Shown here: positions 1,716-42,423 of the stretch, one piece after another | How the letters are laid out: each line of letters opens with the position of its first letter | Numbering within the stretch: the stretch's first letter is position 1 | DNA from: Naegleria gruberi | Lineage: Eukaryota | Reading direction: 5' to 3' (one strand) | Assembly: GCA_000004985.1 (NCBI GenBank) | Contig: GG738918.1 | DNA: 64,000 nucleotides | The notes under the pieces: generated by a model | The model's database searches: none | What the model saw: only the letters and a program-made list of their open reading frames with translations | Told to the model about the DNA's origin: nothing | Made by a program: the position numbers and the translations under genes

Positions 1716-3173
1716 TTAATCGTTGAATTGAACAATAATATTAACACCACGATCGGCAATAACTTCAGTATCAGTAGCATAAAGTTCAGTTCCTGTATGG
1801 AATAATTCCTTGACCTTCTTCTTCAAGTTTGGTTCAGTCATTTGTCTGAGAGTTGCAGGTTTAGTCAAATACAAAGTTTGGTCACTAGTCAAATTACGTA
1901 ATGAAGCATTGTTGAATTGAATTGACTTGTCGGTTCTCAAAATATCTCTAAATTCATCCAAAGTAATATCTGATGAACAAGTAATTGTCTTTGAAACACC
2001 AGCAGGACCACATTGCAAACAATCTGGCTTTCTTTCATTCTTATAAGTGAATGTATAAATACCTTCACTTCCGTTAAACATCATGTAATCATCCAAGAAT
2101 GGAGTACAGAAAGTAGCCAATTTGAATGCTTCATTTGTACATGATGAAGCAATAATAGCATTGGTGGAGGCAATAGCAGGAATGATACCCTTGATGACAC
2201 CTTGTGTTAAACGGAATGTAACACCAGCAATACCAAAGTTCTTGGCACGTTCCAAAGACTTTTCATAGATCCATTGAACGTGTCTTGGATTATCACCATC
2301 AACTTGTTCATCATCAGGAATACCTTCCTTTCCTTTACAATTACGCCATTCTTCAATATAACAATATTGAATACAATGTTCAGGAAGACGTGGAGTTGTC
2401 TTTAAAGTACACATTGGATAATTTGTTTCATCAGTAGGGAATAAATCCAAAGTACATTCATAACAAGATGTAACACCTGGCAAGATAACTCTAGATTGTC
2501 CTTTAAAGCCTTCAGTACCACCATCAACCAAGGAAATCATGGAACTCATATCAACTTCAGTCTTTTCATCATCAACATATTGAATCAAAGAGAGGAGAGT
2601 ACTATTGATCCAACGACGAGCTGGAATAGAATCCAAACCAGCAATAATAATTCCAAATGATCTATAGAAATCAACAGACTTTTCTTGGATTGCACAAATG
2701 TGTGCTGTAACTTTAACACCTGGCACTCTTTCATTGACAAATCGAGCAGCAACTTCAGCCTTCATCTTACCAACATCACCATCACGGAACAAAAATTGTC
2801 TATTCAAATTACTTGTACTGATGGTATCCATATCAATGATATCAATATTACGGAAGCCACTCATTGCCAAATTCTTCACCAAATCGCAACCAAGACCACC
2901 AGCTCCAATAATTAAAACTTTGCAAGAATCTTGTAAAAATTGTTTAGTTTCATCACCAGCTTGGAAATCTGCTGGAGCAAATGGACCTGATCTCTTCAAA
3001 ATATAATCAAGATCTTTCCATCTTTCTGCTTCAATTTCAGGAGGGAATGATGTATCTACAACGCTGGCCATTTTTTTTCTATGTATTGAATTGATCAAAC
3101 TTGCAGAGAACTTGAGTTTATTTTTAAATCCAAAGTTGCTGCTTTGAAAGGCTTGGGATGAACTCAACAACAT
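1716..3173 (-). CDS. uba3: NEDD8-activating enzyme E1 catalytic subunit (UBA3). The likely true start is the MASVVD methionine at 3071.
   Basis: It carries the ThiF/MoeB-type E1 fold motifs VLIIGAGGLGCDLVKNLAMSGF..IDMDTISTSNLNRQFLFR, the catalytic Cys region and a C-terminal NEDD8-E1 domain. It aligns along its whole length to UBA3. Confidence 0.85.
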   Translation of the reverse strand: MLLSSSQAFQSSNFGFKNKLKFSASLINSIHRKKMASVVDTSFPPEIEAERWKDLDYILKRSGPFAPADFQAGDETKQFLQDSCKVLIIGAGGLGCDLVKNLAMSGFRNIDIIDMDTISTSNLNRQFLFRDGDVGKMKAEVAARFVNERVPGVKVTAHICAIQEKSVDFYRSFGIIIAGLDSIPARRWINSTLLSLIQYVDDEKTEVDMSSMISLVDGGTEGFKGQSRVILPGVTSCYECTLDLFPTDETNYPMCTLKTTPRLPEHCIQYCYIEEWRNCKGKEGIPDDEQVDGDNPRHVQWIYEKSLERAKNFGIAGVTFRLTQGVIKGIIPAIASTNAIIASSCTNEAFKLATFCTPFLDDYMMFNGSEGIYTFTYKNERKPDCLQCGPAGVSKTITCSSDITLDEFRDILRTDKSIQFNNASLRNLTSDQTLYLTKPATLRQMTEPNLKKKVKELFHTGTELYATDTEVIADRGVNIIVQFND

Positions 3174-4444
3174 TGAGAAATATTGTTGAACACAAGTGAA
3201 ACAATTTACAATGAATGATAGAGAGAGTTGGGGTTTTGAATTTGAATTTGTAATGGTGTGAATTTTTAAAAGAGATGATCAACTTTTGAAGTTATTGCCA
3301 ACAACATATTGTAGTTTTCCAGAAACCATGACATAAATTTTTTCACCTCAACACCGATCATTTTTCCATCTCATCCATGTTGATCGATTAAAATCCATCT
3401 ATTCAATCTGTTTTTTGATCAATCTATCAAACAATCGATCATGATTAATCAACAATTTCAATCATATTGAATAAAGACTTGATGTTATTTGAAAAGGCTC
3501 AATTTTCAACTAATTATCAAAAGATGTTGTTTGATTTCTTGTGATGTTTCAAAATAAAGAACTTTAAAACACAAAAAGTTGTTTTTCCAAGTTGCTTAAA
3601 ATCATGTTAGAAGCCAATCTCCTCCGATGTGGCATTTGAATATAAATTTCTTATAATCCTTTCTGAGCTCAATGACAGAGGGTTGCTCCCTTTTTCCAAG
3701 AATATGTCAAGTGCTCACTCTTGATTTTAATTTGGGATATGGATATTGCAATATTACATAAGAGTGTTGGTTCTTGGTTAATGATTGCTTACACAAGTTT
3801 GGACGTTGTTGCTCCTGAACATGTGGTTTTGTTCAAAGAACACCTTATCAAATTTGCTTTCATTCTCTCCCTTTGTCATTAATTAAGGCAGTGAATACTG
3901 GAAACCTTTTTTCAAGTGTTGTATTTATCATGTCAAGTTCTTGAGAAACTCGATTGATGTAGTAGAAGATCCACTAGTAATTCAGTAAGATACAAATCTA
4001 TCTAAGTTGTAACCCAGCATTTCTTCGAAAATGTCGAATTCATTGTAAAGAAATTAAAACATTCAAACTTAATGAATCGTTCACGATACCACCCCCACTT
4101 GATATGGAATTAAGTAATACCAATAAGGTGATTTTCAAGACACTCTATACTGACATCCAACCAAGGGTTGATTTAAAATGAAAAAAGGAGCAATTTGGAG
4201 AAGCCATTTCCAAGCTTAGTGATATAATTTAATTAAGGGAGAATGAAATCTGTGACTCTAAAAATAATTGAAAAACCAAAAAACAACTCTCAAAAAGGCA
4301 AGAAAAAAATCAAACCTGAACTGGAAGAACAAAAGAAATCATCAAAATCAAAGTCTCAAGCTCAGTTCAATGAGGATTTCGAGATATCTGATGAAAACAT
4401 TGATAGATCGATCGATTGATCGATCAATTAATTGATAAAATTCT

Positions 4445-6961
4445 ATGTTTCATCCATTCAATCGATCATTTTCCATCTCGATCAATCATCGATGGGTAAA
4501 AAAAATCCATCTAAAAATTTATGTCATGGTTTCTCCAAGATCAAAAAAAATGCCAAGATCATCCACTCCAACCAAAAGGAAAACCATTCAACAGCCATTA
4601 ATATTTCAACCCACTTTGAAGAAAACTAAATCATCCGAAACAACGTTGAATTCTCCTATTACTATTAGTGATGATGGTGAGAATGAGGATTTATTGTTAT
4701 CAGCTGATGGAGATCAAGCACATGATGATGATATTGAAATATCAACAGAGACTGTTTCGGATTCATCAAGCAAATATTCAATTATTAGAACACCTATTAA
4801 TGATTCATCGACAGTGGATGAATTGGGATTGGAAAGTGTTGAAGCTCATGAACTTCAACAATATTTCAATGCTGAGAAATATTTAGCTAAAGAAAAAGGT
4901 AAATGTAAAAAGATTTATTGCATAGATAGAGGATCTTCATTTACAAAGGGTAACAAGTTTGATATTTTAGAAAAGAGAGTCAAACCAACTATATTAAAAT
5001 TTGGACATAAGGAAAAGACACAATTTTTACCTTCTCAAACATTTTACAATTTACAAAAAGGTCAAGTGAAGATGGGTAAATTTGAGGTTAGTAATGAATG
5101 GGAAGAATTGGAAAATTTGAAAAAGATATTCATGGTGAGTGAGTTATTGGAAATTGGATTAAAATCTGAGAAGAAGAAACTTAGAGTATCTCACATTATT
5201 TATTTAATGATTAGAGATTTAATATCTCAATTATTAACAACTAAAAAACAAGATTCTAATTATTTGGAAGGTATTGGTGCATGGATATTTACATGTCCAT
5301 CAGGAACAAGTGTATTTACTAAATTAATATTTAGAAATTGTATATTTAAAGCATATAATAGTTTAAACATTAATGAAAATAATCCATTACAAATAGATGA
5401 CATATATGTTATTGAGGAATGTACATTATTGAAATATTTTGCCAACAATCAAGAAAAAACATCTACAATGTTTGTTGATTTGGGTCATTTAACACTTGAT
5501 GTCGTTGTGATGGATTTAATTGATGGTGAATATATTGTAACATTTAAAAATGGTGAATCTAGTGGAATGTCACTCATACATCAATTATTAAAAGATAATG
5601 GATTAGATTCAATTAAGGAAATGGAAAATTTATTTGATAATTATCATGATTCTAATGAATTACCACCATCTTTATTACCTCTTAAAAATCAAATTGATGA
5701 AACATTGAAAACTATTACAAAACCTCTATGTATGATGATATTACAAAAGCAAGTAGATTCTATTCACTTTTCAGGTGCTATTACACGAGTTGCTTATTTT
5801 CAAAGAAAATTACAAGAAAATATTAGTTATGTACGTTTACAAAATATTAAGAATGAGCTACTTCCATATTTAAAAGAAGAATTCAAGAATAGAGATATAC
5901 CTATTATTGAATTTTTATGTGAAACTACAGGTGAAAGTGCTTTACTATCAGGTGCAGAAGAAATGATTAATTGTTCTTTAATGAAAATTTCACAAAATGA
6001 ACTCGATTGTAATGTTCCAATTATATTTAAGGAGAAATCTATTAGTGAACAAGTACTTAGTGAACCCTCAATATCATCAATACCAGAAATGAATGAACAA
6101 ACACTACCAACTACTATTGATTGTTTATTATCATCTATTAGTTATAATGACAGTAATAATATTGAGCAGTATGTACCTGCCATGCTATTTGACCATTGCA
6201 ATAGTGGAAGGGTCGAAAAAAAAATGTTATTGGGAAATGTTTTACTAGACATGAATATTAAACAAGATACTGAAATATTTTTAATCAAGTTTAGTCCACT
6301 CATTGATACTAAATTAATATCAACTATTGATTATGAAAATTTTGAAAAAGTGGGAATTATTGAATTCATTAGATTTACCAATTTAATCATTTGTTTTGAT
6401 TGTAATCACATTAAAACTACTACCAATTTACACTTTTATATGAAGTTGGATTTGGAAGATGATTTCTTATTAGTTAGAATTTATTATACTAAAGGTAAAT
6501 CCTTTTTTAAAACTATTACACGAATTGAAAGAAAAGGAAGAAATGAAAGAATTTCCATTAATGATTCTGCTCAACTAATTTTTAAAACAAAAGAAGATGA
6601 AGTAAGAACATGGTATGGTGTATATTATGATACTTTGAGTATTGTATCCAGTTTTTCAAGTATTTCCATTAAATATGCAGAATTAGAAAACGAAATTGGA
6701 GTTGAAAAAGCAAAGGGATTACATGTTGGTAGCAAGCAGCTATCTATTCCAAGTATTGGATCAAAAGATAAGGAATTTGTAAGAAAACACCTTTCTAAAT
6801 GTTCTGTTTGTCAATGCGAAATTAAGAAGGTGCATGCTTGTATTTCTTATAACAAACTACCAATATTTAGAAAAGTATTTGATGATAATTCCATTAATCT
6901 TGGAAATTGTTGTAGTCCTTGTTATAGAATCTATAATGATTTAAAAAAGGAAGAAAAATAG
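4445..6961 (+). CDS. HSPA12-like atypical Hsp70/actin-fold (ASKHA) protein, with degenerate phosphate-binding loops and a Cys-rich C-terminal motif.
   Basis: IYCIDRGSSFTKGNKF resembles the HSPA12 phosphate-1 motif AIDFGTTSSGYA. FVDLGHLTLDVVVMDLIDGEYIVTFKNGESSGMSLIHQLL resembles the HSPA12 phosphate-2/connect motif VVDCGGGTVDLTVHQI..LYKASGGPYGSLGVD. The conserved glycines are replaced (DRGSS, DLGHLT). The C-terminus has a CSVCQCEIKKVHAC...CCSPC cysteine cluster. The true start is probably downstream, at MVSPRSKK (4526) or MPRSS. Confidence 0.45.
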   Translation: MFHPFNRSFSISINHRWVKKIHLKIYVMVSPRSKKMPRSSTPTKRKTIQQPLIFQPTLKKTKSSETTLNSPITISDDGENEDLLLSADGDQAHDDDIEISTETVSDSSSKYSIIRTPINDSSTVDELGLESVEAHELQQYFNAEKYLAKEKGKCKKIYCIDRGSSFTKGNKFDILEKRVKPTILKFGHKEKTQFLPSQTFYNLQKGQVKMGKFEVSNEWEELENLKKIFMVSELLEIGLKSEKKKLRVSHIIYLMIRDLISQLLTTKKQDSNYLEGIGAWIFTCPSGTSVFTKLIFRNCIFKAYNSLNINENNPLQIDDIYVIEECTLLKYFANNQEKTSTMFVDLGHLTLDVVVMDLIDGEYIVTFKNGESSGMSLIHQLLKDNGLDSIKEMENLFDNYHDSNELPPSLLPLKNQIDETLKTITKPLCMMILQKQVDSIHFSGAITRVAYFQRKLQENISYVRLQNIKNELLPYLKEEFKNRDIPIIEFLCETTGESALLSGAEEMINCSLMKISQNELDCNVPIIFKEKSISEQVLSEPSISSIPEMNEQTLPTTIDCLLSSISYNDSNNIEQYVPAMLFDHCNSGRVEKKMLLGNVLLDMNIKQDTEIFLIKFSPLIDTKLISTIDYENFEKVGIIEFIRFTNLIICFDCNHIKTTTNLHFYMKLDLEDDFLLVRIYYTKGKSFFKTITRIERKGRNERISINDSAQLIFKTKEDEVRTWYGVYYDTLSIVSSFSSISIKYAELENEIGVEKAKGLHVGSKQLSIPSIGSKDKEFVRKHLSKCSVCQCEIKKVHACISYNKLPIFRKVFDDNSINLGNCCSPCYRIYNDLKKEEK

Positions 6962-15205: not shown

Positions 15206-17741
15206 TTATTTTGCATCTATTTTTCGTTTGGATTTTCGAAGTAAATTGCTAACAATTTTACATGGAGTGATGAGCGATAATCTTTCACAAATGTCATACA
15301 TGGCTCTGTAATTGTTTTGAAACATGTAATCTTGAGCCAGTTCCAAATCTTTAGAAACTTTGATTTGTAAATCAGTTGCATCAGTTCTTGCACTTTCTAA
15401 ACTGTATATTCTTGTTGGTGTTTCTTTTCCCTTTAGTAAAATGTAATCAGCAAAATAGCAAACAAATTCATTCTTCACATGTTGATAGGTATTCTCACTG
15501 ATTAGAATATTGGAACCATAATATCTATTCAAAGATTGAAGCTTGGATCCAATATTAACATCATCTCCAATAGCTGTGAAATTCAATCGATTCTCACTTC
15601 CCATACTGCCATACATCATATTTCCACTGCTGACACTAACGTAAATTGAGAGATCAATATCAATTTGTCTTTCATTCCTCCACATTATATTTAATTCATC
15701 GATAATCTCCAAAGCTTCCATTGCAGCTTTGCAAGCTCTCACTTCATGCTCCTCAACTGGCATTGACGAATCATTCCAAACAGCTTGTAATCTATCTCCA
15801 TTTATCATATCAATTAATCCTCTATGATCTTCCATTGCCTTTGTTAAACTTCCAAAATAATCAGTCATCACAGATACAAATATTGATGTTTCAGTTAACT
15901 CTGCCAATTGAGTAAAATCCTTAATACTAGAAACAAGAATTGTCATATTTTGAAGTGTCAATCCAACATCTAAATAATGTTCGTCACTAATCACTTTTTT
16001 CATTATTGTAGGTGAAACAAATTTAGAAAATGCTGAAACTCCTCTCTTTAGAGAATTAATTCCATTCTCCATCTCTCCAATATCATAGAATATTTGACCA
16101 GCAGTTGTGATTTTGGTATTATCACTTTCGCTCGCAAGACTCTTATCACTCAATATCTTGGAGAGTTTCTTGTGAACATGATTTAAGGGTTGTGTGAAAA
16201 GTTGAACAATTACAAAAAGACACAACGTTCCAGCAACGAGAATAACAATGAATACCACTACAGATGTCATACCACTTGAGAGAATTTCTGCAAATATATC
16301 TGCATCTACTGATCCAATAACCAATGCCAAACTCAATCCATATGGATCAACTACTGGAGTTATCACAACATTCTTTCCACGATATTTCAAACTGATTGGT
16401 ACGTTAGAGGTAATGTTTTTCAGTAACTCCTTATCTTGTATATAATTAGCAATTTCAAAAATTTCACCATCTCCAGTATGGACAGTGAACTTGGTTGTGT
16501 TATATCTACTTGAGGCAATAACATTTCCATTCGTTTCCATGATGAAACTATAGCTAATGAAATTGTAAGATCTTGAAGTAGAATTCAGGAAGGAATTCAA
16601 TCCTTTCAGTGCAAACACCTCAGCAACAGCTCCAAATAAATGATCCTTATGTTTAAAATTCGTTATGCTTATATCAATAGAATCAATGCTCTTTCCTGTC
16701 TTACAAGCTTGTGTGATATTCTCTTTTACATAGATAGGATAAGCAATACTAATGGATGGCTCACCAATAGTTGAAATGTAAAGCTCAGTCCATCTCTGCC
16801 CAGTTGCTAATCCTTCCTTGAAAGGATAGTACCACGGTCTTAAATGTAAATCAAAGGCTACTCTCATTTAATATACTCAATTAGTATTGGGAATACTTAC
16901 TAAAAGGCTCAACAAACAAAAAGAGGTTGTCTTTGAGTGGATTCTCAAATGGATTTTCTGAAATATGGTAATAGTACATCGCAGTTCCTGTTCCATTTAT
17001 CAGTAGAACATATGGTGTAGAAATATCCAGTGTTCCAGCATAATTCCTCAAATAATTTCCGTATTGAATTGTTGTGAGTGGTGATTTGTGAATATAGACT
17101 GATCTGAGATATTTGAGAAAAATTGCCCACTCGGTAATATTTTTCAATGGAAATCCATTCTCTACTTCCATTTTTACCTGTTGGATTATCAGATTTGAAG
17201 TGTTGATGATTTTTCCAATTTCAAATGTTACATAACTTTGAGTTTGTTGAGCTTGAAATCTCGAAACTCGCAAAAGAACACTATTTCCAGACGTGTACAT
17301 TAGTATGAAAGAAGGAATCAATCCAATGAGTCCCTGAATAATGAAGAGAACCAACAGGACATGACTAATTCTCAATCCTCTCGAACAATTATACATTCTT
17401 GGTTTTTTGTTTTCTTGTGTTTCTGGCATGTGACGTAAATGTTCTTCCCCATGACGTGACTCCTCGAATGTGAAAACAGTATTTCTCCTTCCATAGATTG
17501 GATCTGGTTTGGTGGTTGGATGAATAATGGATGAGGTGGTACTGTTACCATGGGAAGGTCTTCTATGCAGAGGGGGTGGTGTGTTTCTTTCGACATGTAT
17601 TGTTCTCTCAAATGGATCTTCATCAACAATTTCGATGGGTGTAGATGTTTTCGACTCCTCAATTGTGATTTCCTCTTGAATTGATGATGAGGGAGGTACC
17701 TTCCTAGAAACCAAAAGATCCTCACTATTGTTTGGAATCAT
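15206..17741 (-). CDS. Receptor-type class III adenylyl/guanylyl cyclase, organised as cytosolic N-terminus, TM, extracellular Cache-like sensor domain (RPWYY motif), TM and a single cyclase catalytic domain. It spans two ORF-track ORFs joined by a 40-nt intron (16861-16900).
   Basis: The cyclase domain reads LVSSIKDFTQLAE...INGDRLQAVW...NFTAIGDDVNIGSKLQS, with both metal-binding Asp residues present. The extracellular region reads LHLRPWYYPFKEG, a Cache signature. Two TM helices are present. The minus-strand intron GTAAGTATTCCC...AATGAGAG fuses ...LFVEPF to (I)AFDLHLRPWYY in frame. Confidence 0.7.
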
Positions 17742-19297: not shown

Positions 19298-21980
19298 TTA
19301 TTGTTTGAAATACGAACCAACGTAACCTCTTCCCGATCTTGAGGCTGGCACTCCTCTCTCTGTTGATTTAGCTCTGTGGCCAGGTGCAGTAGCTTTAGAG
19401 GAAAGAATTGATTTGGATTCATTGTTGGCAACTTGACTATTTGCAACCATTGACTTTAACTGACTTCTTTCTTCAATTAATCGTTTAAGGCTTTCTTTAC
19501 ATTGGTTATATTCTTTTTGAAGGTTATTTACATATTCAACAGCTTGTTGCAAAAGGGTTTCTTTTTCTTCTAATCTAGTTGACATCTTTCTGTTAAATTC
19601 TACTGAAATGTTGAGTTGAATTCTAGTATCTAGGAGTTTAGTCTTAGCATCCATAGCAAGAGCAATATCATGCAATTGTTTCAATACTTCTTGACTTGAT
19701 TCCATATCTTCGCTCTTCAGTAGTTCCAAAACTCTGTCTAATCCCATATGAATTTCAGAAAGTTCATTTCTTGTGGATCCTAGCTCTCTTTGCATTTCTT
19801 TTACAACCTCGTTGTGCAATGCAATTCTAGAAGAGGCTTGTTTAATCTCTTTTTCAATACCTGTTTGTGGGTTTGGTTCGATGAGGTCCTTTCTTTCCTC
19901 TAACAATAATTCAATTTCTTTCTTCATCTCTTCAATTACTGCAATGTGTTCAGATCTTTCCTTATTGATGGCATCTTGGAGCTCTTTCTTATGAGCCATG
20001 TTTGAATCGTTCAAGTTTTGTTGTGTAGCTTCTAATTTCTTTTCAAGTGCATCAATTAATTCTTGCTTCTTTGCAACTAGTTGTCTCAAGTTGGAATCGA
20101 GTTCAAGCTCCTCAATTCTTTCCTTGAATAAAGAATTTTCTTCTTTCAACACCTCAACTTCCATTTCCAAGTTTGAAATCTTTTCTTTGAGTAACCTCTC
20201 AGATCCAGCCTTGCTTAACTTGGCAGATTCCTCTTCTTCGTACTTTTTCTTAAGCTTTGCAACAAGCTCGTCAGCTTGGTCTTGCAATTGGAGATTCATA
20301 TTCTTTAATTCGTCATTTTCATTTTGAAGTAATTTTACCTCTTCTTCGTCAACCCCTGATGATGGATCTTGCAATAATTTCGCATACTTTTCTGAAACCA
20401 ATTTGTGTGCTTCTTTTTCAGTATCAAAATCCCTTGCCAAGTCTTCCGTCTTTTCCAAGAGTTGGTTGTAATCGGTGGTGAGAGTATTGAGCTCGTATTG
20501 GTACATTTCACATTGGTTTTGAATATCAGTCTTTTCCTTTTCTAACTTTTCAATCATTTCGTTAACTGGAGAGGAGTCGGCTTGAGAGGATTTAAATTCC
20601 TCTATTTGCAGATTCAAGTCGAGAATTTTACTCTCTAACTCTTGAATTTGCTCCTCCTTCTCGTTGAGTTGTTCCTTATTTACCTTAAATTCTTCCTCTA
20701 AAAATTGAGTATTCTCAGATAATTTCTTTAATCTTGACACTTCATCTTGTAATATTCTTAACTTATCATCAGTATCGATAGAAACTCTTGGTGTTCTGAC
20801 AGACTTCTTCAGTTCGTCATTTTCTGCCAATAGTGATTCTATTTGTTGCTGTTGTGAGTTAAGCAATGTGAGATACTCTTCTTCGTTAGAGTTTTCCTTG
20901 AGGTGCTCTTGAATGATTGAAACAGTCTTGTTCACATTATCTGCATTAGTCAACAGTTGACTGAGATTTGTACTATTTTCAACAATTGGTTCTCTTTCTT
21001 TTTCGGCTTCCTTTGCATAGAAAGCTGATAATTCTGCTGTTAGGTTGTGATTTTCTTCCTCAATTTGTCTCTTTTCGACTTCTCTAGCATTCAACAAGTC
21101 TTGCTTTTCAAGTAATTGTCTCTTGATTTCTGCAAATGCTTGATTAGTTTCTTCCATTTCTAGAATGGTCTTGGAGTATAAATCTCTCAATTCCTTGTTT
21201 TCTCTCAAGAGTGCAGCTTCATCCCTTCCTTCATTCTTAGGTTTTGATTTTTCATTATCATATTGAGAAAGAAGATCATCATACTTGGATCTGAGTGATG
21301 TTAATTCGTCCATTAATTCTTGTCGTTTCAAAGTTGCAATCTCTGCCTCCTTTCTGTATTTCTCCTTCTTTTCTTGCAGTACCTTGAATTCATCTTCCAT
21401 ATCTTTTACATTGAGTTGGAGTTTTTCAATTTCTGCTTGTCTTTGTTCTCTTTCCTTTTCTTGAACTGATATAATATTCCTGATTAATGTAAATTAGAAG
21501 AGTGATGATATTTACATACCTTTGATTGACGAGTTCCTTCTCAGAAATGTCCAAAACCTTTGAAATTTCAACAACTTGACCTCTCAGGGTTTCATTCTCT
21601 TCTCCTACAAGGTTCATATGCTCCTCTATGGTTTTATTCCTATCAGAGAGAATTTTAATTTCCTTATTATATTCTAACTTAATTTGATTAATATCAGAGA
21701 GTTGAGATTCATTATTAGAGAGTCTTGATATTGATTCCTTTTGTTTTTGTATTTCCTCCTTCAACTTTTTAATATCATTTTCTCTTCTAGAATTGATGGT
21801 TCTTAAGGCTTCGGCCTTTAATGATGATCAGCATTAAATTGTATTTGCCTTAATACCTACCTCCTTCTCTGCAAAAAGTACCTCTTCTACTAAGACCGAT
21901 AGATCCTTCTTCCTGCTGATTAACTCTCCTTCCAACTCTTGGATTCGGTAGTTTGCCTCTTCTAAGGATTTAACTGGCAT
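19298..21980 (-). CDS. Long coiled-coil protein (E/K/L/Q-rich heptad repeats over about 850 aa). It has three exons, with introns at 21816-21860 and 21480-21519.
   Basis: The ATG is at 21980. Canonical GTAGGT...AG (45 nt) and GTATGT...AG (40 nt) introns join the ORF-track ORFs 21426..21764 and 19298..21400 in frame. The coiled-coil character is apparent from the sequence composition. Confidence 0.6.
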
Positions 21981-25417: not shown

Positions 25418-25708
25418 AATGTGGAATTGGAGAAATATAATGGAGATTTTAGAGTGCTTTGGATATGAAATTGTGTTATTCGAAATAGTGGAAATTGCAT
25501 TCGAATGCAATTTAATATTTGGAGAAAATGATTCATCAGAATTAGGATCATTGAAATTAGTAAACACTAATTGAATCAATTTCAAAAACTTATAATTCCT
25601 CTTCTAAGCCTAATCCAAATTTGTTAATTCTACATTTTTAACACTTTAATACTTTAGAATATTTCCAACCGAATCATTCTAAACTCAGAAATTAAACTCA
25701 AAAAGAAA

Positions 25709-33873: not shown

Positions 33874-34748
33874 TTAGTCATTATCGTATGGATTGATATA
33901 TTGTAAAACTCGGGCAACATTTTTGGAAACAATATTCTTTACAACCTTGTTAAGTGGATTCTTTCTCAAGGAATAATCCAATTCGAATCTGATATCTTCC
34001 TTTACTTTCTCTGCAATTTCAATTAATTTCTTATCAGATTTCAAACTATCAGAAGCAAATTTAAGTGCATTTCCATCTTGTAAAATTGCTTTCAGAACTA
34101 TCTCTCTATTATTTCTCATATCATTTGAAGCAAATTTTAAAGCACTTCCCTTATTCGAAACTGCTTCCAAAACAACACGTCTGTCCTTTCTCAATTTCTT
34201 TGAAGCAAACTCCAGATTATTTCCATTAATTTTTACAACTTTTAAAACCAATTCCAAATCATTTTTCAATTCACTTGAAGCATATCTGAAAGAATTAGTA
34301 ATACAACGAGTTTCAACACGAAATACTTATCATTTCGTAAAATAGGTGAAGCATATTCAAACGCATGATAATTTTGCTTTACAGCTGCCAAAACAATATC
34401 CCTGTCATTTCTCAAACTGTCAGATGCAAATTGAAGAGCACTTCCATATTGAGAAACAGCCAACTTGACAATTTCTTTATCATTTTTCAATCTATCAGAA
34501 GCATAGGATAGTGAATATCCATTTCTTTTAACAGCTTGTGAAATAATTTGTCTATTGTTTCGTACATCATGAGGAGCATTTTTCAACACATGAACATTAC
34601 TCACAATGCGACTTGAATAATCATCAATCGATTCTGGAATTTCGGAAGATGTGAAATTATGTGCAATGATCGGAACTAGATGATGATAGATTTGCTCTAA
34701 TCTATTTCTTCTCATTTTTTTTTGTAAAATAATTTGAAGGTTTTTCAA
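33874..34748 (-). CDS. DUF4116 repeat protein, with at least five approximately 36-aa repeats (LKFAS..L+.D+EIVLKAV.Q.G.AL). It has two exons, with a 41-nt intron at 34286-34326.
   Basis: The repeated motif reads YASDRLKNDKEIVKLAVSQYGSALQFASDSLRNDRDIVLAAV... The minus-strand intron GTATTTCGTG...TTTCAG joins ORFs 34266..34748 and 33874..34269 in frame (...ILRND-K-YASSELKND...). The real ATG is probably MRRNRLEQ at 34715; the ORF-track start is a TTG. Confidence 0.6.
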
Positions 34749-34927
34749 AGAGTTGCCAGCTCACCACCGAGGAAACAATTCACTGATCAAGATCCAATCT
34801 TTGTGTAAAATCCATTAAAAAATCCATTAAAATAGAAATTTTAAAACCAGAACATGCGAATGGTGGTTCAAGTTCAACGCCTTAATAATCAATTTAAGAA
34901 AAAAAAAATCACAACTCGATCTTTGGA

Positions 34928-35366: not shown

Positions 35367-37103
35367 TTATTGATTTGATAAGAGTGGTTTAACATGATCT
35401 CTTGGGATGAAATAGACTGGATTCTTATTCATATCAATATAGAACATGGATTGATCAGTTTCCATCTTTGGAAATTCATTTGGATTTTCGTGAACTAATC
35501 TGAAATGTCTAACAATATTAATCAATGAAAATAGAATTTCAGTAGTGGCCACTCTAGATCCAGGACATTTTCTAGCTCCCAAACCAAATGGATTGTGTAC
35601 ATAGTTATTGATTGGGCGACATTCATGACTCTTTTCATATCTTTCTGGAATAAACTCCATCGAATGTGGAATAAACTTTTCAGAATACTTTGGACTCTCA
35701 AAAAAGTGCACGAATGAACCTTTAGGAATCTTATATCCAGCAATCTCCAAATCCTTACTTAAAACTCTCAAACTTGAAGTGTCTATGACGTGATTCAATC
35801 TCATTGATTCATCAATAAAGTTTCTACAAAATTTAAGCTTCTTGAATTGCTCTGCTGTGATAAGCAGATTTCCATTCGTAATTTCATCAATTGATGGCTC
35901 TCCGAAAACTTTGACTAATTCCTCATAGAGTTTCTCCTGATATTTAGTTTCGTGAGCTATTCTATACATGGTAATGGCCATAACTCTGGCTGTGATATCG
36001 ACACCAGCTAAAAGGAAGGAACTGAGTGTGATGGTTGCCATCTCATTACCACGTTCATATTCCTTCGCCTTTTCTTCAATCAATTCTTTCAATCGAGGCA
36101 TTCCAGAAGGATTAGATTCAGTAAATAAATTAATACACATTTTACATCTCTCTATAATGGAAACATAGAGTGTTTTCAATTCTAAATAGTCCTTTCTACG
36201 TAAATACTTGAAGAATGGAATATCAAAAACTGTACGTGTACCAATATCTAAAAATCTCAGTGCATCCTTCACGAATAGATCTCTATCGAATGGTAAGATT
36301 AGAGATTTATCATAGAAATTGGCACCTAAAAAGACCTTTGAAACTGCGTTAAAGGTATATCTGGAGATGAATTGAGTTGGATTTACAATTTGAAAAACAG
36401 GAGAATTGGCAATTGACTTTTTGAAATCTTCATCTTGGATTTGATTCATGGTTGACTGAATGTTTTCAGTTTTTTTCAAATGTTCAATCAAACAATTCAT
36501 AAAACCAGAATTCAATTGAGTCAACTGTGGTAAAGAAATGCTTTCTGACAAATCAGGACGCATGGCAATGTTAAATAAACTTCTAACATCTTGCCAGTTT
36601 TCGTCTGGTTTCATCTCAACTGGGGCCATGATCATATTTTCATCCAATTTAACTTGTCTGAAACCTTTCACATAGAATCTACCTTCATCTTGTTGGGCAA
36701 CCTCTTTCACATAGATTGGATTTGATAGAATGACATTGTTAGCTCCTAACAATTCAAACTTTACAACTTCTCCGTATTCCTTTACCAATTTTTCAAAGTA
36801 AGCTTGTGAATTCTGTGAATGTTTGAAGAATTCCAAAGCATCACCAATTAATGGATATCCTTTAGGTCCTGGAATACTACTATATGGTTTTACCTCTTTC
36901 TTCTCTTTGGAATGATTTCCTGCAAAGGGACATGCTCCTTCATGTTGTTCTAGTTGACCATCTAATTTTGCTGCTGTATTACTGTAAAATCTTACAACAT
37001 TACCACTAAGACATGCATGTTTTGTAACTGATAATCTCTTCAATGCAGAGCAAGGGATCTGATATCTAATCATTTTCTTTCTTTTGTCCATTTGGCTTGG
37101 CAT
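35367..37103 (-). CDS. Cytochrome P450 monooxygenase.
   Basis: The heme-binding Cys loop reads NPFGLGARKCPGSRVA, the K-helix ExxR reads ESMRL, and the I-helix reads AGVDITA. The N-terminus looks like a targeting presequence. Confidence 0.85.
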   Translation of the reverse strand: MPSQMDKRKKMIRYQIPCSALKRLSVTKHACLSGNVVRFYSNTAAKLDGQLEQHEGACPFAGNHSKEKKEVKPYSSIPGPKGYPLIGDALEFFKHSQNSQAYFEKLVKEYGEVVKFELLGANNVILSNPIYVKEVAQQDEGRFYVKGFRQVKLDENMIMAPVEMKPDENWQDVRSLFNIAMRPDLSESISLPQLTQLNSGFMNCLIEHLKKTENIQSTMNQIQDEDFKKSIANSPVFQIVNPTQFISRYTFNAVSKVFLGANFYDKSLILPFDRDLFVKDALRFLDIGTRTVFDIPFFKYLRRKDYLELKTLYVSIIERCKMCINLFTESNPSGMPRLKELIEEKAKEYERGNEMATITLSSFLLAGVDITARVMAITMYRIAHETKYQEKLYEELVKVFGEPSIDEITNGNLLITAEQFKKLKFCRNFIDESMRLNHVIDTSSLRVLSKDLEIAGYKIPKGSFVHFFESPKYSEKFIPHSMEFIPERYEKSHECRPINNYVHNPFGLGARKCPGSRVATTEILFSLINIVRHFRLVHENPNEFPKMETDQSMFYIDMNKNPVYFIPRDHVKPLLSNQ

Positions 37104-37142
37104 TCATGCTGTTTTTATATAAAGTTGAAATGGAAGAGCAAG

Positions 37143-38137
37143 TGCACTGAGAAAATCGTCACTCCGGTCAATGTGCTTTGTTTCTGAGTGGATTATGATT
37201 GACCAATGGTTCTAATTGCGATTGGAGATGAGATTTTTGCAACACCGACAATAAGTTTAAATTCAAATTTGAAACTGTTTTTTTCAAGGTCAGTTTTTGG
37301 AGGTAATTTTGTTTTGGCAAATTAATTGATTGGTTAAGTTGAATAACCAATTTATTTCCTTAGTATTCTCTAAGAAAAATTGGAAGAAGAAAATCAATTA
37401 TTTTGAATGCGGAAGAATGTTTTCTGATAATTTCCAAGTTTCCAGAATGTTTGGATTATTTTAATATTGTTTTCTTGTTGATTCTTATTAAAAGTATTTA
37501 TTTGTATGATAGATATTTCATTGTGTGAATGATAAATGAAAACATGTATCACATTTTGAATTTATGCGAGTGATTGACATGTCACATGTTGAGTCATATG
37601 TGAATGATAAAATTGGCTAATAGAGTACATGTGAATGATTCACATATACTGTATGTGAATGTATAAACAACTCACATAATGTGTTTATTCAATCACAATT
37701 GAAACAATACATTACAATTATCCAGATAAATGGTGGAGCAAATATTCTGAAAATCATCACAGGAAATATTCATGAATCTATTATGGGGTACGTGATGGGT
37801 TTGTTATTTAGTATTATATTAATTTAACTTATTGTGTTTTTTATCTAAAAAAGGGTGGACAAAATGCACCATTGACCGTTGATGTTGGTGTTTCAGGAAT
37901 TGTTAAAATTCTTGATAACTTTAAGGATGAACAAAATGGTACTTTCATTCAACATGATGGAACTCCATTGAATTGGTAATTGATTTTATAAAGTAATCTC
38001 TTTGATTTATCAAATTTTCAATTTTTTAGGATAGGCAGTTATTGAATTAGTTTGGATTGTTGACTATAATTAAAGAGAAAGGTTTATGCAACCAACACAG
38101 AAACAAAGCATTAGGTGGTGACGATTTTCTCAGTGCA
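37143..38137. mobile_element. A ~995-bp segment bounded by a 20-bp perfect inverted repeat (TGCACTGAGAAAATCGTCAC at 37143-37162, GTGACGATTTTCTCAGTGCA at 38118-38137). It contains five or more copies of the motif (C/T)ATGTGAATGA(T) at 37500-37660. It is a candidate MITE or TIR-element relic, or else a structured regulatory module.
   Basis: I compared the two strands directly. No ORF of transposase size lies inside, and no clear target-site duplication is visible. Confidence 0.4.
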
Positions 38138-38274
38138 TTTCAAATATTTATAGCAAGAAGCAACACTTTTTTTAGGTAGCTCAGATAAATGCAAAAAACA
38201 ACTATGGAAATTATGAATACCGATGTATGGTATATTTCATATTAGTCTGATCTTGATCAGTGTGATGGAATGGT

Positions 38275-39939
38275 TCAATGGTTTTGGATTGAAGGTCTGT
38301 AATTAATGAAATAGTCTTTGGAGTGTTCTATTTTGATTCCCTTCTCAACAGTAATATAATTGTAAACACTGGGGTAAGATTTTTTTGGAATCCAAAATAA
38401 TGTCTTTTCCAAGTCTTGTTCAATGCCAGGTACGTTACTAATAAAAATCAAGCCCAGACTTGTTGCAGCAAGTTCCTTATCTTTGCCAGTTAAATATTGG
38501 TTGACAAGTTCTTCATATCCCAGTAGTAGATTGGATTCTAAAAGGCCAGGAATTCCAATAATTTGTTTTCTTGCAATCCAAATAATTGCTAAAGGATATT
38601 CATATTTGTTTTTCAATTGACTGAAAACTTGGAAGGAATCAATCATGTCAATTTCTAAACCTGAAGCCCACAACAATGCCTTGATATTTGATTCATCCAA
38701 GTGATTACTGATATATTTGAAAAAGTTCAAACACTCTTTGTTTCCTTTTCTTGCTGATATAAAGGCATTAAAAAATACTTGTTGAGGAATTCCACATCCA
38801 AACTTGATTTCTTCGATTTTCTTGCTATTTTGTTCATACTCATAAATTTCATTATAAACTATATTAAGGATGTCAGTGTTATAGTTGCTCTCTTCAGATT
38901 CATTTGAAAATAATGACCGACACCAGTACATTCGAATTGGAGTTGATTTTAAACCATTAATATTATTAATTAAACATTCTCTACTATCATCACTAAAATC
39001 TCCTTCATGATCGACAATACTAAACTCTGAAAGGAAATCTGAAATGATTTCTGTCAATCCACGAGATACTGTGAAATAACAGGCCCCAATAAAAGTAATA
39101 ATCTTGTCATCCCTTCTTCCAATAACTGATGATAAGAAAATGTTGCATAATTCTCTGGCAGATTCATTTCCATTTCGAGCTAATCGACACATGTCCAAGA
39201 AACCAGTGCTTACCGATCTAATGTAGTCATAAATTGGAAATCTCACCGATTTCTTTAACTTTTTCATATATTGTTCACATATTCCTTGAATTTGTTTCGA
39301 ATAGTCTCGTTGTGAAATTTCAATTTCCAATATCTTGGAAACTGTCTCTTCAATGGAAGGAATTGTTTTAAAACTTCCTTCAATTTTAAAATTTGATAAA
39401 TCACAAGCATATTGATTGCAATTATTCCTTGCTTCATGAAACAATTTTTGATAACATGAAAGAACAGTTGGTGAAGATTTACAACTGATAGTATCCGAGT
39501 GATAGAGCATTTCTGGATATTCCTCTGTTAAAACGAACAACTTTCCAACAAGTTCCTTCATTGAATGTTTGCTTAGTTCATGTTGAAATTCACCTCCATC
39601 TACAATAAATTGGCACAACACTTGCTTGGAAGTATAAGTTTTCCAAACAAGCTGATAACGGTAATTAGGAAATGTTTCGAACAAGACACAAAAACATTCA
39701 TCCCTTTCGTTCCATTCAATATGAAATGCTCTTCTTTCTTCTCCCGCATCATTTCTTATGCTCAAGTTCTTCCTAATGTTTCCGATATTATCATCCAACT
39801 GTTGTGATGGCTTTGCTAATTTATGATCGACAAATAGCAATGCAAACTCAGCTACAAACATTGAAGCTGATGTTTTACGTTTGGAAAATACAAACAAGCC
39901 TCCTTTTTCTTTTGCTTTGATAGCTTTGAATTTGAACAT
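38275..39939 (-). CDS. Hypothetical protein (554 aa) with no recognisable domain.
   Basis: It is a long ORF with coding-like composition and an ATG start. Confidence 0.45.
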   Translation of the reverse strand: MFKFKAIKAKEKGGLFVFSKRKTSASMFVAEFALLFVDHKLAKPSQQLDDNIGNIRKNLSIRNDAGEERRAFHIEWNERDECFCVLFETFPNYRYQLVWKTYTSKQVLCQFIVDGGEFQHELSKHSMKELVGKLFVLTEEYPEMLYHSDTISCKSSPTVLSCYQKLFHEARNNCNQYACDLSNFKIEGSFKTIPSIEETVSKILEIEISQRDYSKQIQGICEQYMKKLKKSVRFPIYDYIRSVSTGFLDMCRLARNGNESARELCNIFLSSVIGRRDDKIITFIGACYFTVSRGLTEIISDFLSEFSIVDHEGDFSDDSRECLINNINGLKSTPIRMYWCRSLFSNESEESNYNTDILNIVYNEIYEYEQNSKKIEEIKFGCGIPQQVFFNAFISARKGNKECLNFFKYISNHLDESNIKALLWASGLEIDMIDSFQVFSQLKNKYEYPLAIIWIARKQIIGIPGLLESNLLLGYEELVNQYLTGKDKELAATSLGLIFISNVPGIEQDLEKTLFWIPKKSYPSVYNYITVEKGIKIEHSKDYFINYRPSIQNH

Positions 39940-40036: not shown

Positions 40037-40155
40037 TGGCTACGGCCATATCACGATGAATGCACCTCATCCCGTCCGATTTGAGAAGTTAAGCATCGTA
40101 GAGCCACATCAGTACTGAGGTTGGAGACAACTTGGGAACCTGTGGTGCTGTAGTC
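40037..40155 (+). rRNA. 5S ribosomal RNA gene (nuclear type), followed by a TTTTT Pol III terminator.
   Basis: GGCTACGGCCATATCACGATGAATGCACCTCATCCCGTCCGATTTGAGAAGTTAAGCATCGTAGAGCCACATCAGTACTGAGGTTGGAGACAACTTGGGAACCTGTGGTGCTGTAGTC contains the universal 5S blocks (GGCCATA.CAC, CCCGTCCGAT.TG, GAAGTTAAGC, AGTAC, GGGAAC). The terminal helix I is complementary and a T5 run follows immediately. The ends are accurate to about 3 nt. Confidence 0.85.
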
Positions 40156-40220
40156 TTTTTATGATTATTTATTGAATTCAAATTACAATTCAAAAATGTT
40201 GAAATATAATTATTTCATTG

Positions 40221-40859
40221 TTAATGTTGTCCTGAAACAGCTTTCCATGAAGGTCTTGATGAAATCTTTTCCCACCAAGCTTTAACATGTGGACGATCCA
40301 ATAACAAATTACCCAATCCAATGGCAAACAACAAGTTTCCGTATGGCAAATGATACAAATCGGCTAAGGTAAATTGATTTCCACCAATGAATTCTTGTTT
40401 GGCCAATACTCTTTCATAGGCATCCAAATTGAGAGACAACTTTTCACTCAATTGCTTGACACGAGCTTCGTCGGCAGCTCCATATCCCATCATTCCCTTA
40501 AATAACTTTTCAAAGACTAAACCAGATGCGTTAGAATCAAAGTAAGCAGTTTCAATGGAAGCTCCTTGTTCAAATAAACCCAAAGCTTTGAGCTCAGTTG
40601 GAATAAGTTCAGTTCCTTTACTCTTGTGTTTGGCTTCCAAATAACGACAGATGGCTCGTGATTCATAAATCAAGAAACCATCATCTTCCAAGACTGGAAT
40701 GACACCAAATGGGTGCTTTTCCAAGTAGGATGGTGATTTATGTTCTCCCTTCATCAAATCAACTGGTACAAGTTCGAATTCTAAACCTTTCTCTTTAATT
40801 GTTGTCAAAACACGTTGAACACAAGTAGATTGAGCAGCACCATAAATTTTGTAGACCAT
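40221..40859 (-). CDS. Glutathione S-transferase (cytosolic, theta/phi-like).
   Basis: The N-terminal thioredoxin-like GST domain reads MVYKIYGAAQSTCVQRVL...HPFGVIPVLEDDGFLIYESRAICRYL. A C-terminal helical domain follows. Confidence 0.8.
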   Translation of the reverse strand: MVYKIYGAAQSTCVQRVLTTIKEKGLEFELVPVDLMKGEHKSPSYLEKHPFGVIPVLEDDGFLIYESRAICRYLEAKHKSKGTELIPTELKALGLFEQGASIETAYFDSNASGLVFEKLFKGMMGYGAADEARVKQLSEKLSLNLDAYERVLAKQEFIGGNQFTLADLYHLPYGNLLFAIGLGNLLLDRPHVKAWWEKISSRPSWKAVSGQH

Positions 40860-41031
40860 TTTGTTGTAGTAATGTAAAGTTGTTTTTTTTGTGATTAGAA
40901 ATGCATGCTATTGAAATGCCATTTATGGTGGATTCTGTATCCGAAACCAAAGCGCTATCGTGAGCACTAATTTTAATGATCTTAGGAAATGTCGCAATAA
41001 ATGGTTTGCATTACATCCTCTTTGAAACAAC

Positions 41032-42423
41032 ATGTCTTTGAAATTGATCATGTATTCAATTATTATTGTAAACTGTTGTTTATTCAATTTCCACTGTTTG
41101 TTTGAAAAATTAACAAAAAAAAATGAGCAAACGAAGCAGACAATTTATAAATTAATTGATTCGGAGGAAATATTCACTCTCAATAATAACAGAACAGAAG
41201 AGAAAGCAAAAAAGAAAAAACTCCAAGAAATATTCTCCAATGATGTTCTTTCAGAAATTGTATCTTTTAATAATGATTTTAAATTCGGAGTGATGACTTG
41301 TGCATTGGTTTCAAAGCAATGGTTTTCTGTTGTGAAGGAACGATCGAAACTTTCACTGCTATGTAAAAGTATTAAGAAATTACAAGGTGAATTTTTGGAG
41401 AATATTGAAAATTTGCGATTGGAAAGAAATAATAGATTCTTTGATTGTCAAATAATTGGATTGATGAAAGGATTGACAGTTCTCAGTGCTGAAAATTGTA
41501 TTGGTACAGAAGGGGTCAAGCATATTTGTAAAATGAACAATTTAACAAAACTGAATATCGAGAGAAATGAAATTGGTGAAGAAGGAGCCAAGTACATTAG
41601 CAAAATGAAACAATTAACTGAGCTCAACGTTGGATGGAACGGTATTGGTAAAGAGGGGGTTGAATTTATCAGTGAATTGAAAAATTTGACCTTACTTGAA
41701 ATTGAAGCTTGTAGGATTTGTGACGAAGGGGCTAAATCTATAAGCGAATTGAAGCAATTGACCCATCTCAATATTTCTTACAATAATATTAGTAATTTAG
41801 GATCAAAATATTTAACTGAATTGAAACAACTGACAGTTCTTACTCTTTGTGACTGTAATATTAGTGAAGAAGGATGCAAATATATTTCTGAGTTGAACCA
41901 ATTAACTGACCTCGATATTAGTAACAATGATATTGGATGCAACGGAGTTGAATATATTAGTGGAATGAAACAATTACTTTTCCTGTATATTTATGGAACT
42001 AATATGTACCCTACTGAACTTCAAAAGATCAGTGAAATGAAACAAGTAACAAACCTTAATATTTCATGGAATTATGTTGGAGATGAAGGAGCTAAATATA
42101 TTAGTGATATGAAACAATTGACTAAACTTGAGGTTGTAAGAAGTGATATTTCTACAGAAGGGGCTAAGCACATTAGTGAATTGAAACAATTGACTGATCT
42201 TAACATTGGTGAGAACAATATTGGTGGTGAAGGAGCAATTGCCATTAGCAAAATGAATCAATTGCGTATTCTAGATATTAGTGATAATAACATTGGTGGA
42301 ATAGGCGCAGAACACGTAAGCCAAATGAAACAATTAACTCATCTTGATATTAGCCACAATTGTATTGGAAATTATGGAGCTAAACGAATCAATACAATGA
42401 AACTGGTATTTCTTAGCAAATAA
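41032..42423 (+). CDS. F-box-like / RNI-type leucine-rich-repeat protein (about 13 LRRs of 28 aa).
   Basis: The repeats fit L..L.I..N.IG.EGAK.IS.MKQLT. The N-terminal F-box-like segment reads VLSEIVSFNNDFKFGVMTCALVSKQWFSVV. Confidence 0.7.
   Translation: MSLKLIMYSIIIVNCCLFNFHCLFEKLTKKNEQTKQTIYKLIDSEEIFTLNNNRTEEKAKKKKLQEIFSNDVLSEIVSFNNDFKFGVMTCALVSKQWFSVVKERSKLSLLCKSIKKLQGEFLENIENLRLERNNRFFDCQIIGLMKGLTVLSAENCIGTEGVKHICKMNNLTKLNIERNEIGEEGAKYISKMKQLTELNVGWNGIGKEGVEFISELKNLTLLEIEACRICDEGAKSISELKQLTHLNISYNNISNLGSKYLTELKQLTVLTLCDCNISEEGCKYISELNQLTDLDISNNDIGCNGVEYISGMKQLLFLYIYGTNMYPTELQKISEMKQVTNLNISWNYVGDEGAKYISDMKQLTKLEVVRSDISTEGAKHISELKQLTDLNIGENNIGGEGAIAISKMNQLRILDISDNNIGGIGAEHVSQMKQLTHLDISHNCIGNYGAKRINTMKLVFLSK

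Follow-up and report, generated by a model that had tools for sequence, protein, structure and literature searches.

Within a 64,000-nucleotide (nt) stretch of Naegleria gruberi contig GG738918.1 (assembly GCA_000004985.1), referred to below as the window, about 1 kb of non-coding DNA bounded by inverted repeats (37140-38140) lies upstream of a cytochrome P450 gene, and we tentatively interpret it as an inserted mosaic that arose when DNA repair or replication switched templates, a reading to which we assign a probability of about 0.45. The original prediction, made from the letters alone, had described inverted repeats, a motif array and a possible spliced micro-gene, and had proposed either a transposon relic or a regulatory module of the P450 gene; the inverted repeat holds up, as does the motif cluster, but the micro-gene does not, and the element itself most likely represents mosaic DNA that is dead and belongs to a generally known kind. 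The evidence for this interpretation includes three local inverted pieces within 38003-38140, copied from identifiable nearby sequence, together with one piece of a short-chain dehydrogenase (SDR) gene. The arms and pieces are as follows.

37140 to 37194, plus strand: left arm, with a perfect core at 37143-37162 and a second identical block at about 37176-37188.
37854 to 37979, plus strand: orphan 3' end of a sniffer/C-factor-type SDR gene, 41 codons and a stop codon, matching 195-236 of the 236 positions in a family profile.
38003 to 38024, plus strand: 22-nt snippet, an inverted copy of 39382-39403 in the coding sequence of a 554-residue open reading frame (ORF; peptide DLSNFKI), identical at 20 of 22 positions and including an exact 16-mer.
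38060 to 38086, plus strand: 27-nt snippet, an inverted copy of 40782-40808 in the conserved N-terminal codons of a GST gene (peptide LTTIKEKGL), identical at 25 of 27 positions and including an exact 19-mer.
38090 to 38140, minus strand: right arm, an inverted copy of 37140-37194, with its perfect core at 38118-38137.

The perfect inverted repeat that had been predicted is present, 37143-37162 and 38118-38137 being fully complementary over 20 nt (23 nt at 96%), and its 19-mer core occurs only at these two sites in the window, even with three mismatches allowed. By local alignment the homology of the arms reaches 37140-37194 and 38090-38140 (about 55 nt, imperfect): the perfect 20-23 nt are followed by a diverged, indel-bearing stretch of 8-11 nt and then by an identical 13-nt block, and the homology tapers without a sharp terminus. 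Such repeats are not expected by chance, as two perfect 20-nt inverted repeats within 3 kb are observed in the window and none in 60 simulated windows (second-order Markov simulations of the window, which serve as the null for inverted repeats). The left arm is probably the native copy; it occupies the stretch 37-91 nt upstream of where the P450 ORF begins (37103, minus strand), just past a TATATAAA box at 37114-37122, and the right arm follows the 554-residue ORF, 135 nt beyond its stop codon. An outward extension of the arms to TATA boxes was considered and found no support in local alignment, the shared TTGAAATG octamer being suggestive only.

The right arm has close company, since both snippets and the arm itself follow directly to the right of the SDR stop codon, within 138 nt, and the GST snippet ends 3 nt before the arm begins. 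The donors of the two snippets lie at distances of 1.4 and 2.7 kb, the GST gene being two genes away. The match of the GST snippet has an E value of 8e-5, and none of 500 shuffles reaches its score. More generally, five perfect 16-mer inverted repeats within 3 kb occur in the window against 0.35 in simulation, and for three of them one arm falls in 38003-38140; exact matches of at least 13 nt between the element and its flanks (6 kb on either side) number six against 1.16 expected, and the three longest, all inverted, fall within 37999-38086. Coding tandem repeats aside, every spaced local repeat of the window is inverted. Given these neighbouring inverted local copies, the apparent 'terminal inverted repeat' becomes one member of a chain, and, because the inner end of the right arm adjoins snippets of neighbouring genes, local template switching is favoured over a transposon arriving from elsewhere. 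A longer GST pseudogene around the snippet (reading 'IYQIF...AVIELV...LLTIIKEKGL' against MVYKIYG...VLTTIKEKGL) was rejected, the extended alignment being matched by 142 of 500 shuffles and only the 27-nt core being significant; a search of relatives for adjacent SDR and GST genes, as a possible single contiguous donor, found no such pair.

The SDR piece encodes exactly the C-terminal 41-42 residues of the enzyme. Its 41 residues align end to end with the C-terminal residues 227-267 of Drosophila sniffer (1SNY, E 1.2e-5, in a search of the PDB), and an exhaustive HMMER search matches them to the C-termini of full-length SDRs, of which the best are heterolobosean: identity is 66% to a Willaertia magna protein (KAL9644423.1), 76% to an intact N. 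gruberi paralogue on another scaffold (P0029) and 83% to a protein, P0028, encoded on a Logan contig (L002). At the nucleotide level, 37850-37980 and the end of the P0028 gene, which is intronless, share 82% identity over 131 nt and 88% over the final 103 nt, through the stop codon; upstream of the GG codons, identity has dropped to background after 15 nt. The rest of the enzyme was sought with a family hidden Markov model (HMM) applied to six frames of 37100-38200, which matches positions 195-236 only (other pieces at E 0.8 or worse, Z = 100), and with tblastn using four full-length SDR relatives, which likewise detects family positions 195-236 alone; by neither method is the TGxxxGxG motif, the catalytic Ser or the Tyr-x3-Lys motif found in 37100-38200. 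As identity breaks off sharply and the rest of the enzyme is not found, the piece is a bounded gene fragment and not a decayed full-length gene. Its dN/dS values (non-synonymous and synonymous divergence) against P0028 are 0.10/0.78, indicating that divergence accrued mostly in functional genes and that the fragment was copied comparatively recently from a functional paralogue. Three further SDR remnants picked out by eye, 'YTVCECINN' (resembling YxxSKxxxN), 'ITGNIHESIMGG' (resembling HPGWVKTDMGG) and 'MVLIAIGDEIF' (resembling VLITGANRGIG), were unsupported by tblastn or the family HMM.

These results bear directly on whether a resident SDR gene could have decayed in place, i.e. on a unitary pseudogene spanning 37200-37980 with its own promoter at the left arm. 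The length would fit (about 750 nt is needed), the TATA box followed by the arm could represent promoter and 5' untranslated region, and the ...M|GG boundary coincides with an intron site in the N. lovaniensis homologue, with a donor-like GTACGT after an ATG 66 nt upstream. However, no trace of TGxxxGxG, NNAG, SxxY/K or HPGW is recovered by the family HMM or tblastn, although the tail is 83% identical and free of stops; the nucleotide identity drops abruptly; and no relative carries an SDR gene at a syntenic position. We regard decay in place as improbable. The search for synteny or orthologous loci covered N. lovaniensis, Willaertia magna and three Logan/ENA contigs and found none, and L001-L008 showed no synteny. 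DUF4116 repeat proteins were seen near the P450 gene in the window (34266-34760, minus strand), in L001 and in L004, and near SDR genes in L003; this family is large in these genomes, so such proximity is no evidence of synteny. L003, an ENA metagenome contig, also carries two tandem copies of the sniffer-type SDR family, at 1-669 and 1173-1889.

Immediately upstream of the SDR tail lies the interval that had been taken for the intron of the micro-gene.

37788 to 37853, plus strand: GTACGT...AAAAAAG interval, 66 nt, a candidate relic intron.

The letters of the proposed exon-intron boundary are present (ATGGG|GTACGT), but the splice arithmetic was wrong, the quoted in-frame product requiring an intron that starts with TA. 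An intron running from GT at 37788 to AG at 37853 (66 nt) instead yields MGVDKMHH followed by a stop, and the frame of the tail itself has a stop at 37809 and, if spliced, one four codons before the junction. The supposed second exon is the orphan SDR 3' end, out of frame under the GT-AG rule and without SDR homology upstream, and the two-exon gene is not supported. A functional micro-gene encoding MGG-GQNAPL...NW would account for a tail that is open for 55 codons and has a low dN/dS against its homologue. It would, however, have to overcome a GT-AG intron that is out of frame, an in-frame version that needs a TA...AG intron, a spliced frame without an ATG and an AAG acceptor that is atypical when set against N. 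lovaniensis introns, and its peptide would be the last 41 residues of a Rossmann-fold enzyme of about 240 residues, devoid of catalytic or cofactor motifs; we find such a gene hardly credible. A 61-residue peptide from this region shared no words with a collection of 5.8 billion protein sequences that includes the N. gruberi proteome, in a word index that can miss short queries. P0029 shares the runs GGQNAPL and VDVGVSGIVK with this peptide, yet the word-indexed search gave no candidates.

The proposed intron is nevertheless not absurd: in N. lovaniensis the homologous gene is interrupted by an intron precisely at ...TDM|GG, and 37788-37853 may be a relic intron copied together with the last exon. 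The three closest SDR homologues are intronless at the ...M|GG position. The N. lovaniensis SDR gene (L007, 7001-7986) has three introns and a 10-nt mini-exon (GGAGGAAAAG), and the L002 gene has none, so that intron content varies within the SDR family.

The surroundings of the element favour an insertion of some kind. Genes in the window are mainly unbroken ORFs with short spacers, and the median non-ORF stretch, i.e. one covered by no ORF of at least 120 residues, is 197 nt. The non-coding stretch 37104-38277 measures 1174 nt and is one of four in the window that exceed 1.1 kb; with 37140-38140 removed, about 173 nt would be left, a typical length, and it is this arithmetic that argues for insertion. 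On the left the spacer is bordered by the start of the P450 gene (ATG at 37103, minus strand), a minus-strand ORF at 35367-37103 with a Pfam match to PF00067 (E 1e-53) and 100% identity to a 'predicted protein [Naegleria gruberi]'. The predicted distance of 40 nt between the P450 ATG and the left repeat is right for the first ATG of the ORF, the NCBI model beginning 12 nt further in (574 against 578 residues). On the right the border is the stop codon of the 554-residue ORF (38275-39939, minus strand), which is uninterrupted, has no Pfam domain and supplies the match to the 22-nt snippet; beyond it come a 5S ribosomal RNA (rRNA) gene at 40038-40156 and then the GST gene at 40221-40859 (minus strand).

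Most of the inserted DNA lies in the interior described next.

37195 to 37787, no strand assigned: interior without recognised origin, with stops in six frames and no Pfam match (ORFs of at least 35 residues), Rfam family or SDR homology.

The segment had been called AT-rich, and it is mildly so, with an interior GC fraction of 0.286, but only mildly when compared with the window (about 32% GC throughout, 0.321) and with its other long spacers (0.30-0.32). An Rfam 15 scan of the element returned snoZ182 as its best match, at 23 bits against a gathering score of 80 and hence below threshold, and scans of the element for transfer RNA genes and for tandem repeats found none. The element has no coding capacity.

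The main alternative origin for the same extra DNA is a decayed non-autonomous cut-and-paste DNA transposon, either of Pack-type or resembling a miniature inverted-repeat transposable element (MITE), in which the arms, 20-55 nt long, would serve as terminal inverted repeats and the ATGTGA motifs described below could once have been repeats that bound a transposase. The predicted transposon relic is plausible in so far as the stretch is non-coding, about 1 kb long, and exactly bounded by inverted repeats, a placement of which a transposon gives the simpler account; excision of the segment restores a typical spacer, internal gene fragments occur as they do in Pack-type elements, the motif is found in both orientations, and the window holds a second spacer, of about 1.2 kb, that is bounded by inverted repeats. 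It is weakened in the first place by the target-site duplication, which was looked for by inspection of the sequence and is absent at 37140/38140 (flanks ...GAAGAGC and CAAATAT...) and at 37143/38137 (flanks ...GCAAG and TTTCA...), despite arms that are perfect over 20 nt; the second element likewise shares only 'CC'. The sole escape would be to read a 4-bp duplication into the palindromic TGCA within the repeat, and such a duplication is indistinguishable from an extension of the repeat. Moreover, the middle of the arms is diverged and contains indels, their homology tapers, and the two internal snippets derive from genes immediately beside the present site, an origin that would be unexpected had they been captured before insertion. 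Neither arm nor interior has a second copy in the 64-kb window, in six related heterolobosean loci (about 95 kb) or in metagenome and viral collections, all of these being weak tests; in the metagenome and viral collections neither the 20-mer nor the 22-mer had an exact match. No transposase remnant was detected, the element having stops in all frames and no Pfam match for internal ORFs, although non-autonomous elements need none, and a search of the literature for Naegleria transposons or MITEs found nothing usable. Taken together, we hold a transposon origin to be a serious possibility but a doubtful one.

The second spacer just mentioned is of interest for both interpretations. The copies of a perfect 22-nt inverted repeat lie at 3321-3342 and 4513-4534, separated by 1170 nt. 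The stretch that they bracket (about 1.2 kb) is likewise among the four longest non-coding ones of the window and separates two divergent genes, a UBA3/E1-like gene on the minus strand (ATG at 3173) and an 838-residue ORF on the plus strand. The right arm of this repeat holds a possible start codon (ATGGTTTCT), and just inside the arms lie arrays rich in the ATCGAT motif and a weak direct repeat (3341-3401 and 4448-4513); no target-site duplication was found at 3321-4534 beyond the shared 'CC'. Two spacers bounded by inverted repeats within 64 kb suggest a recurrent process. The broader proposition, that Naegleria intergenic DNA contains recurrent insertions of about 1 kb that are bounded by inverted repeats, lack target-site duplications and pick up inverted snippets of neighbouring genes, is in our estimation unlikely.

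A single inverted-repeat pair bracketing a segment also recalls a micro-inversion of the spacer, in which staggered breaks would have left an inverted duplication of breakpoint sequence at both ends. Re-inverting the segment puts the SDR tail on the strand of its neighbours and turns the snippets into direct repeats of their donors. Such an event would leave the extra 950 nt and the snippets unexplained, and the other breakpoint lacks the second duplication that would be expected there; a micro-inversion is in our view very improbable.

The remaining component of the element is its motif cluster.

37522 to 37685, no strand assigned: ATGTGA(ATGA) motif cluster, four copies on the plus and four on the minus strand.

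The predicted motif array is borne out in substance. With at most one mismatch allowed, YATGTGAATGA has five matches in 37522-37662 (two exact and three with one mismatch, one of the five on the minus strand), out of 13 in the window; the other eight are spread over the remaining 63.8 kb and none of them is exact. Five of the 13 near-matches to ATGTGAATGA in the window, both exact ones included, thus lie inside 140 nt. For the shorter ATGTGA/TCACAT, seven copies occur within 200 nt against at most two elsewhere in the window, a density reached in none of 200 simulations. Within the cluster, 37620-37654 forms a near-perfect hairpin with 17-nt arms and a 1-nt loop, and the cluster as a whole folds slightly better than shuffles (z = -2.3). 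The central ATGTGAATGA repeats may have arisen as by-products of snap-back synthesis, may once have been transposase sites, or may act as a genuine cis element in the P450 promoter.

The last of these possibilities corresponds to the cis-regulatory module that had been proposed for the P450 gene, in which the ATGTGAATGA motifs at -420 to -580 would together form a homotypic cluster of transcription-factor sites, the left arm a promoter-proximal element and the right duplicate either incidental or antisense-driving, an arrangement that would fit either origin of the DNA. The cluster departs strongly from randomness and is in part a palindrome (ATGTGAAT-G-ATTCACAT), as sites for dimeric factors are; the left arm lies 20 nt past the P450 TATA box, and both blocks of the arms are conserved while the spacer between them varies. 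Spacers here are, however, typically about 200 nt long, which makes a site cluster at -500 unusual, and other copies of TGTGAATG(A) are scattered through the window, one of them inside the P450 coding sequence. We consider a regulatory module distinctly unlikely.

Returning to the template-switch mosaic, we infer its mechanism, the direction of copying and the involvement of a single event as follows. The insert would sit in what was formerly an ordinary spacer of about 170-220 nt that separated the P450 start from the 3' end of its neighbour. Most economically, a DNA end that had broken or stalled would have been repaired or restarted with repeated template switches to the nearby opposite strand, from which the right arm, the GST snippet and the snippet of the 554-residue gene would have been copied; a 51-55-nt inverted copy of sequence adjacent to the P450 promoter would in this way create the apparent terminal inverted repeat. 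The SDR end, i.e. the last 41 codons and perhaps the last intron, would have been copied from an ectopic donor elsewhere in the genome, and the direct and inverted ATGTGAATGA repeats in the centre would perhaps derive from the same snap-back synthesis, or else be a separate cis element. The putative mechanism belongs to the class of filler DNA or templated insertion, of the type produced by microhomology-mediated break-induced replication (MMBIR), fork stalling and template switching (FoSTeS) or alternative end joining (alt-EJ), with at least one ectopic donor in addition.

Several points weigh against this account. About 650 nt of the insert (37195-37847) have no identified donor, so that most of the mosaic is unproven, and documented templated insertions are usually tens of bases long, as opposed to about 950 nt here. 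The 22-nt snippet is marginal when taken alone (E 0.05, in AT-rich sequence), and the source of the GST snippet could be a GST paralogue elsewhere rather than the neighbouring gene. The copies are too diverged for junction microhomology to be read (38087-38089 and the edges of the pieces were inspected by eye). An inverted repeat placed exactly at the ends of the extra DNA is the most direct prediction of a transposon with terminal inverted repeats, and the second inverted-repeat-bounded spacer of 1.2 kb (3321-4534) could equally mean that two transposon families are present.

Some further features of the window were recorded in passing. The 5S rRNA gene (40038-40156, plus strand; Rfam RF00001, 106.5 bits, E 2e-22) is solitary and lies on the strand opposite to all of its protein-coding neighbours. 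Weak tblastn matches to the SDR queries at about 16541-16723 and at 20132-20842 (both minus strand; E 2e-4 and 0.02) suggest that the window has further, unrelated genes for short-chain dehydrogenases. At 41499-42335, a tandem repeat with a unit of 72 nt (24 codons) is present in at least eight copies, 62-71% identical, within a plus-strand, stop-to-stop ORF of 465 residues that starts at 41026 and probably encodes a repeat-domain protein. Isolated palindromes occur at 1565-1597 and 25492-25513, one of 33-34 nt at 88% identity and the other of 22 nt and perfect.

In itself the element matters little. Its analysis does correct a tempting mis-annotation, the 'spliced micro-gene' being the orphan end of a dehydrogenase gene, and it documents a route by which a compact protist genome gains a long spacer. 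Were the broader proposition true, it would imply either a mobile element that integrates without target duplication or an unusually active template-switching repair that makes spacer, and possibly promoter, material from local coding sequence. If the pattern proved frequent across Naegleria, it would provide a readable record of template-switching repair, or of undescribed mobile DNA, in a deep-branching eukaryote; to our knowledge neither such a record nor such mobile DNA has been studied in Naegleria, and we know of no study of the template-switch repair pathway in this genus.

Comparison with known systems places the element as follows. Its SDR piece shares with the sniffer/C-factor SDRs (1SNY, KAL9644423.1 and P0029) the last 41 residues and the stop codon, which align end to end, but it amounts to 17% of the protein and has no catalytic or NAD(P)-binding motif; it differs from a processed retrocopy in lacking a poly-A tract and in being possibly preceded by intron sequence. 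Under the staggered-break model, inversion breakpoints carry inverted duplications, and here too a short inverted duplication brackets a segment, although there is only one and the added DNA is unexplained. Pack-MULEs, other Pack-type transposons with terminal inverted repeats and MITEs have inverted-repeat ends, host-gene fragments (in Pack-type elements) and a target-site duplication, and 1 kb is at the upper end of the usual MITE size. With these the element shares inverted-repeat ends, a non-coding AT-rich interior, a length of about 1 kb, host-gene fragments and an intergenic position beside a promoter; unlike them it has no target-site duplication, its arms are short and tapering, and two of its fragments come from adjacent genes. 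Pack-type elements are expected to carry fragments from unlinked loci, whereas two of the three donors here are adjacent genes, which fits local templating better. From the templated insertions and filler DNA attributed to MMBIR, FoSTeS and synthesis-dependent alt-EJ the element departs in the size of its insert (about 950 nt), in the two thirds of it that have no identified donor, and in being ancient and diverged. In yeast, microhomology-mediated template switching at breaks gives rise to short templated inverted insertions and to pairs of inverted pieces (PMC11724301). With templated insertions of this kind, including the yeast 'Break-Ins' (PMC11724301), the element has in common abutting inverted pieces of 16-55 nt taken from within a few kilobases, a piece from an ectopic donor and no target-site duplication.

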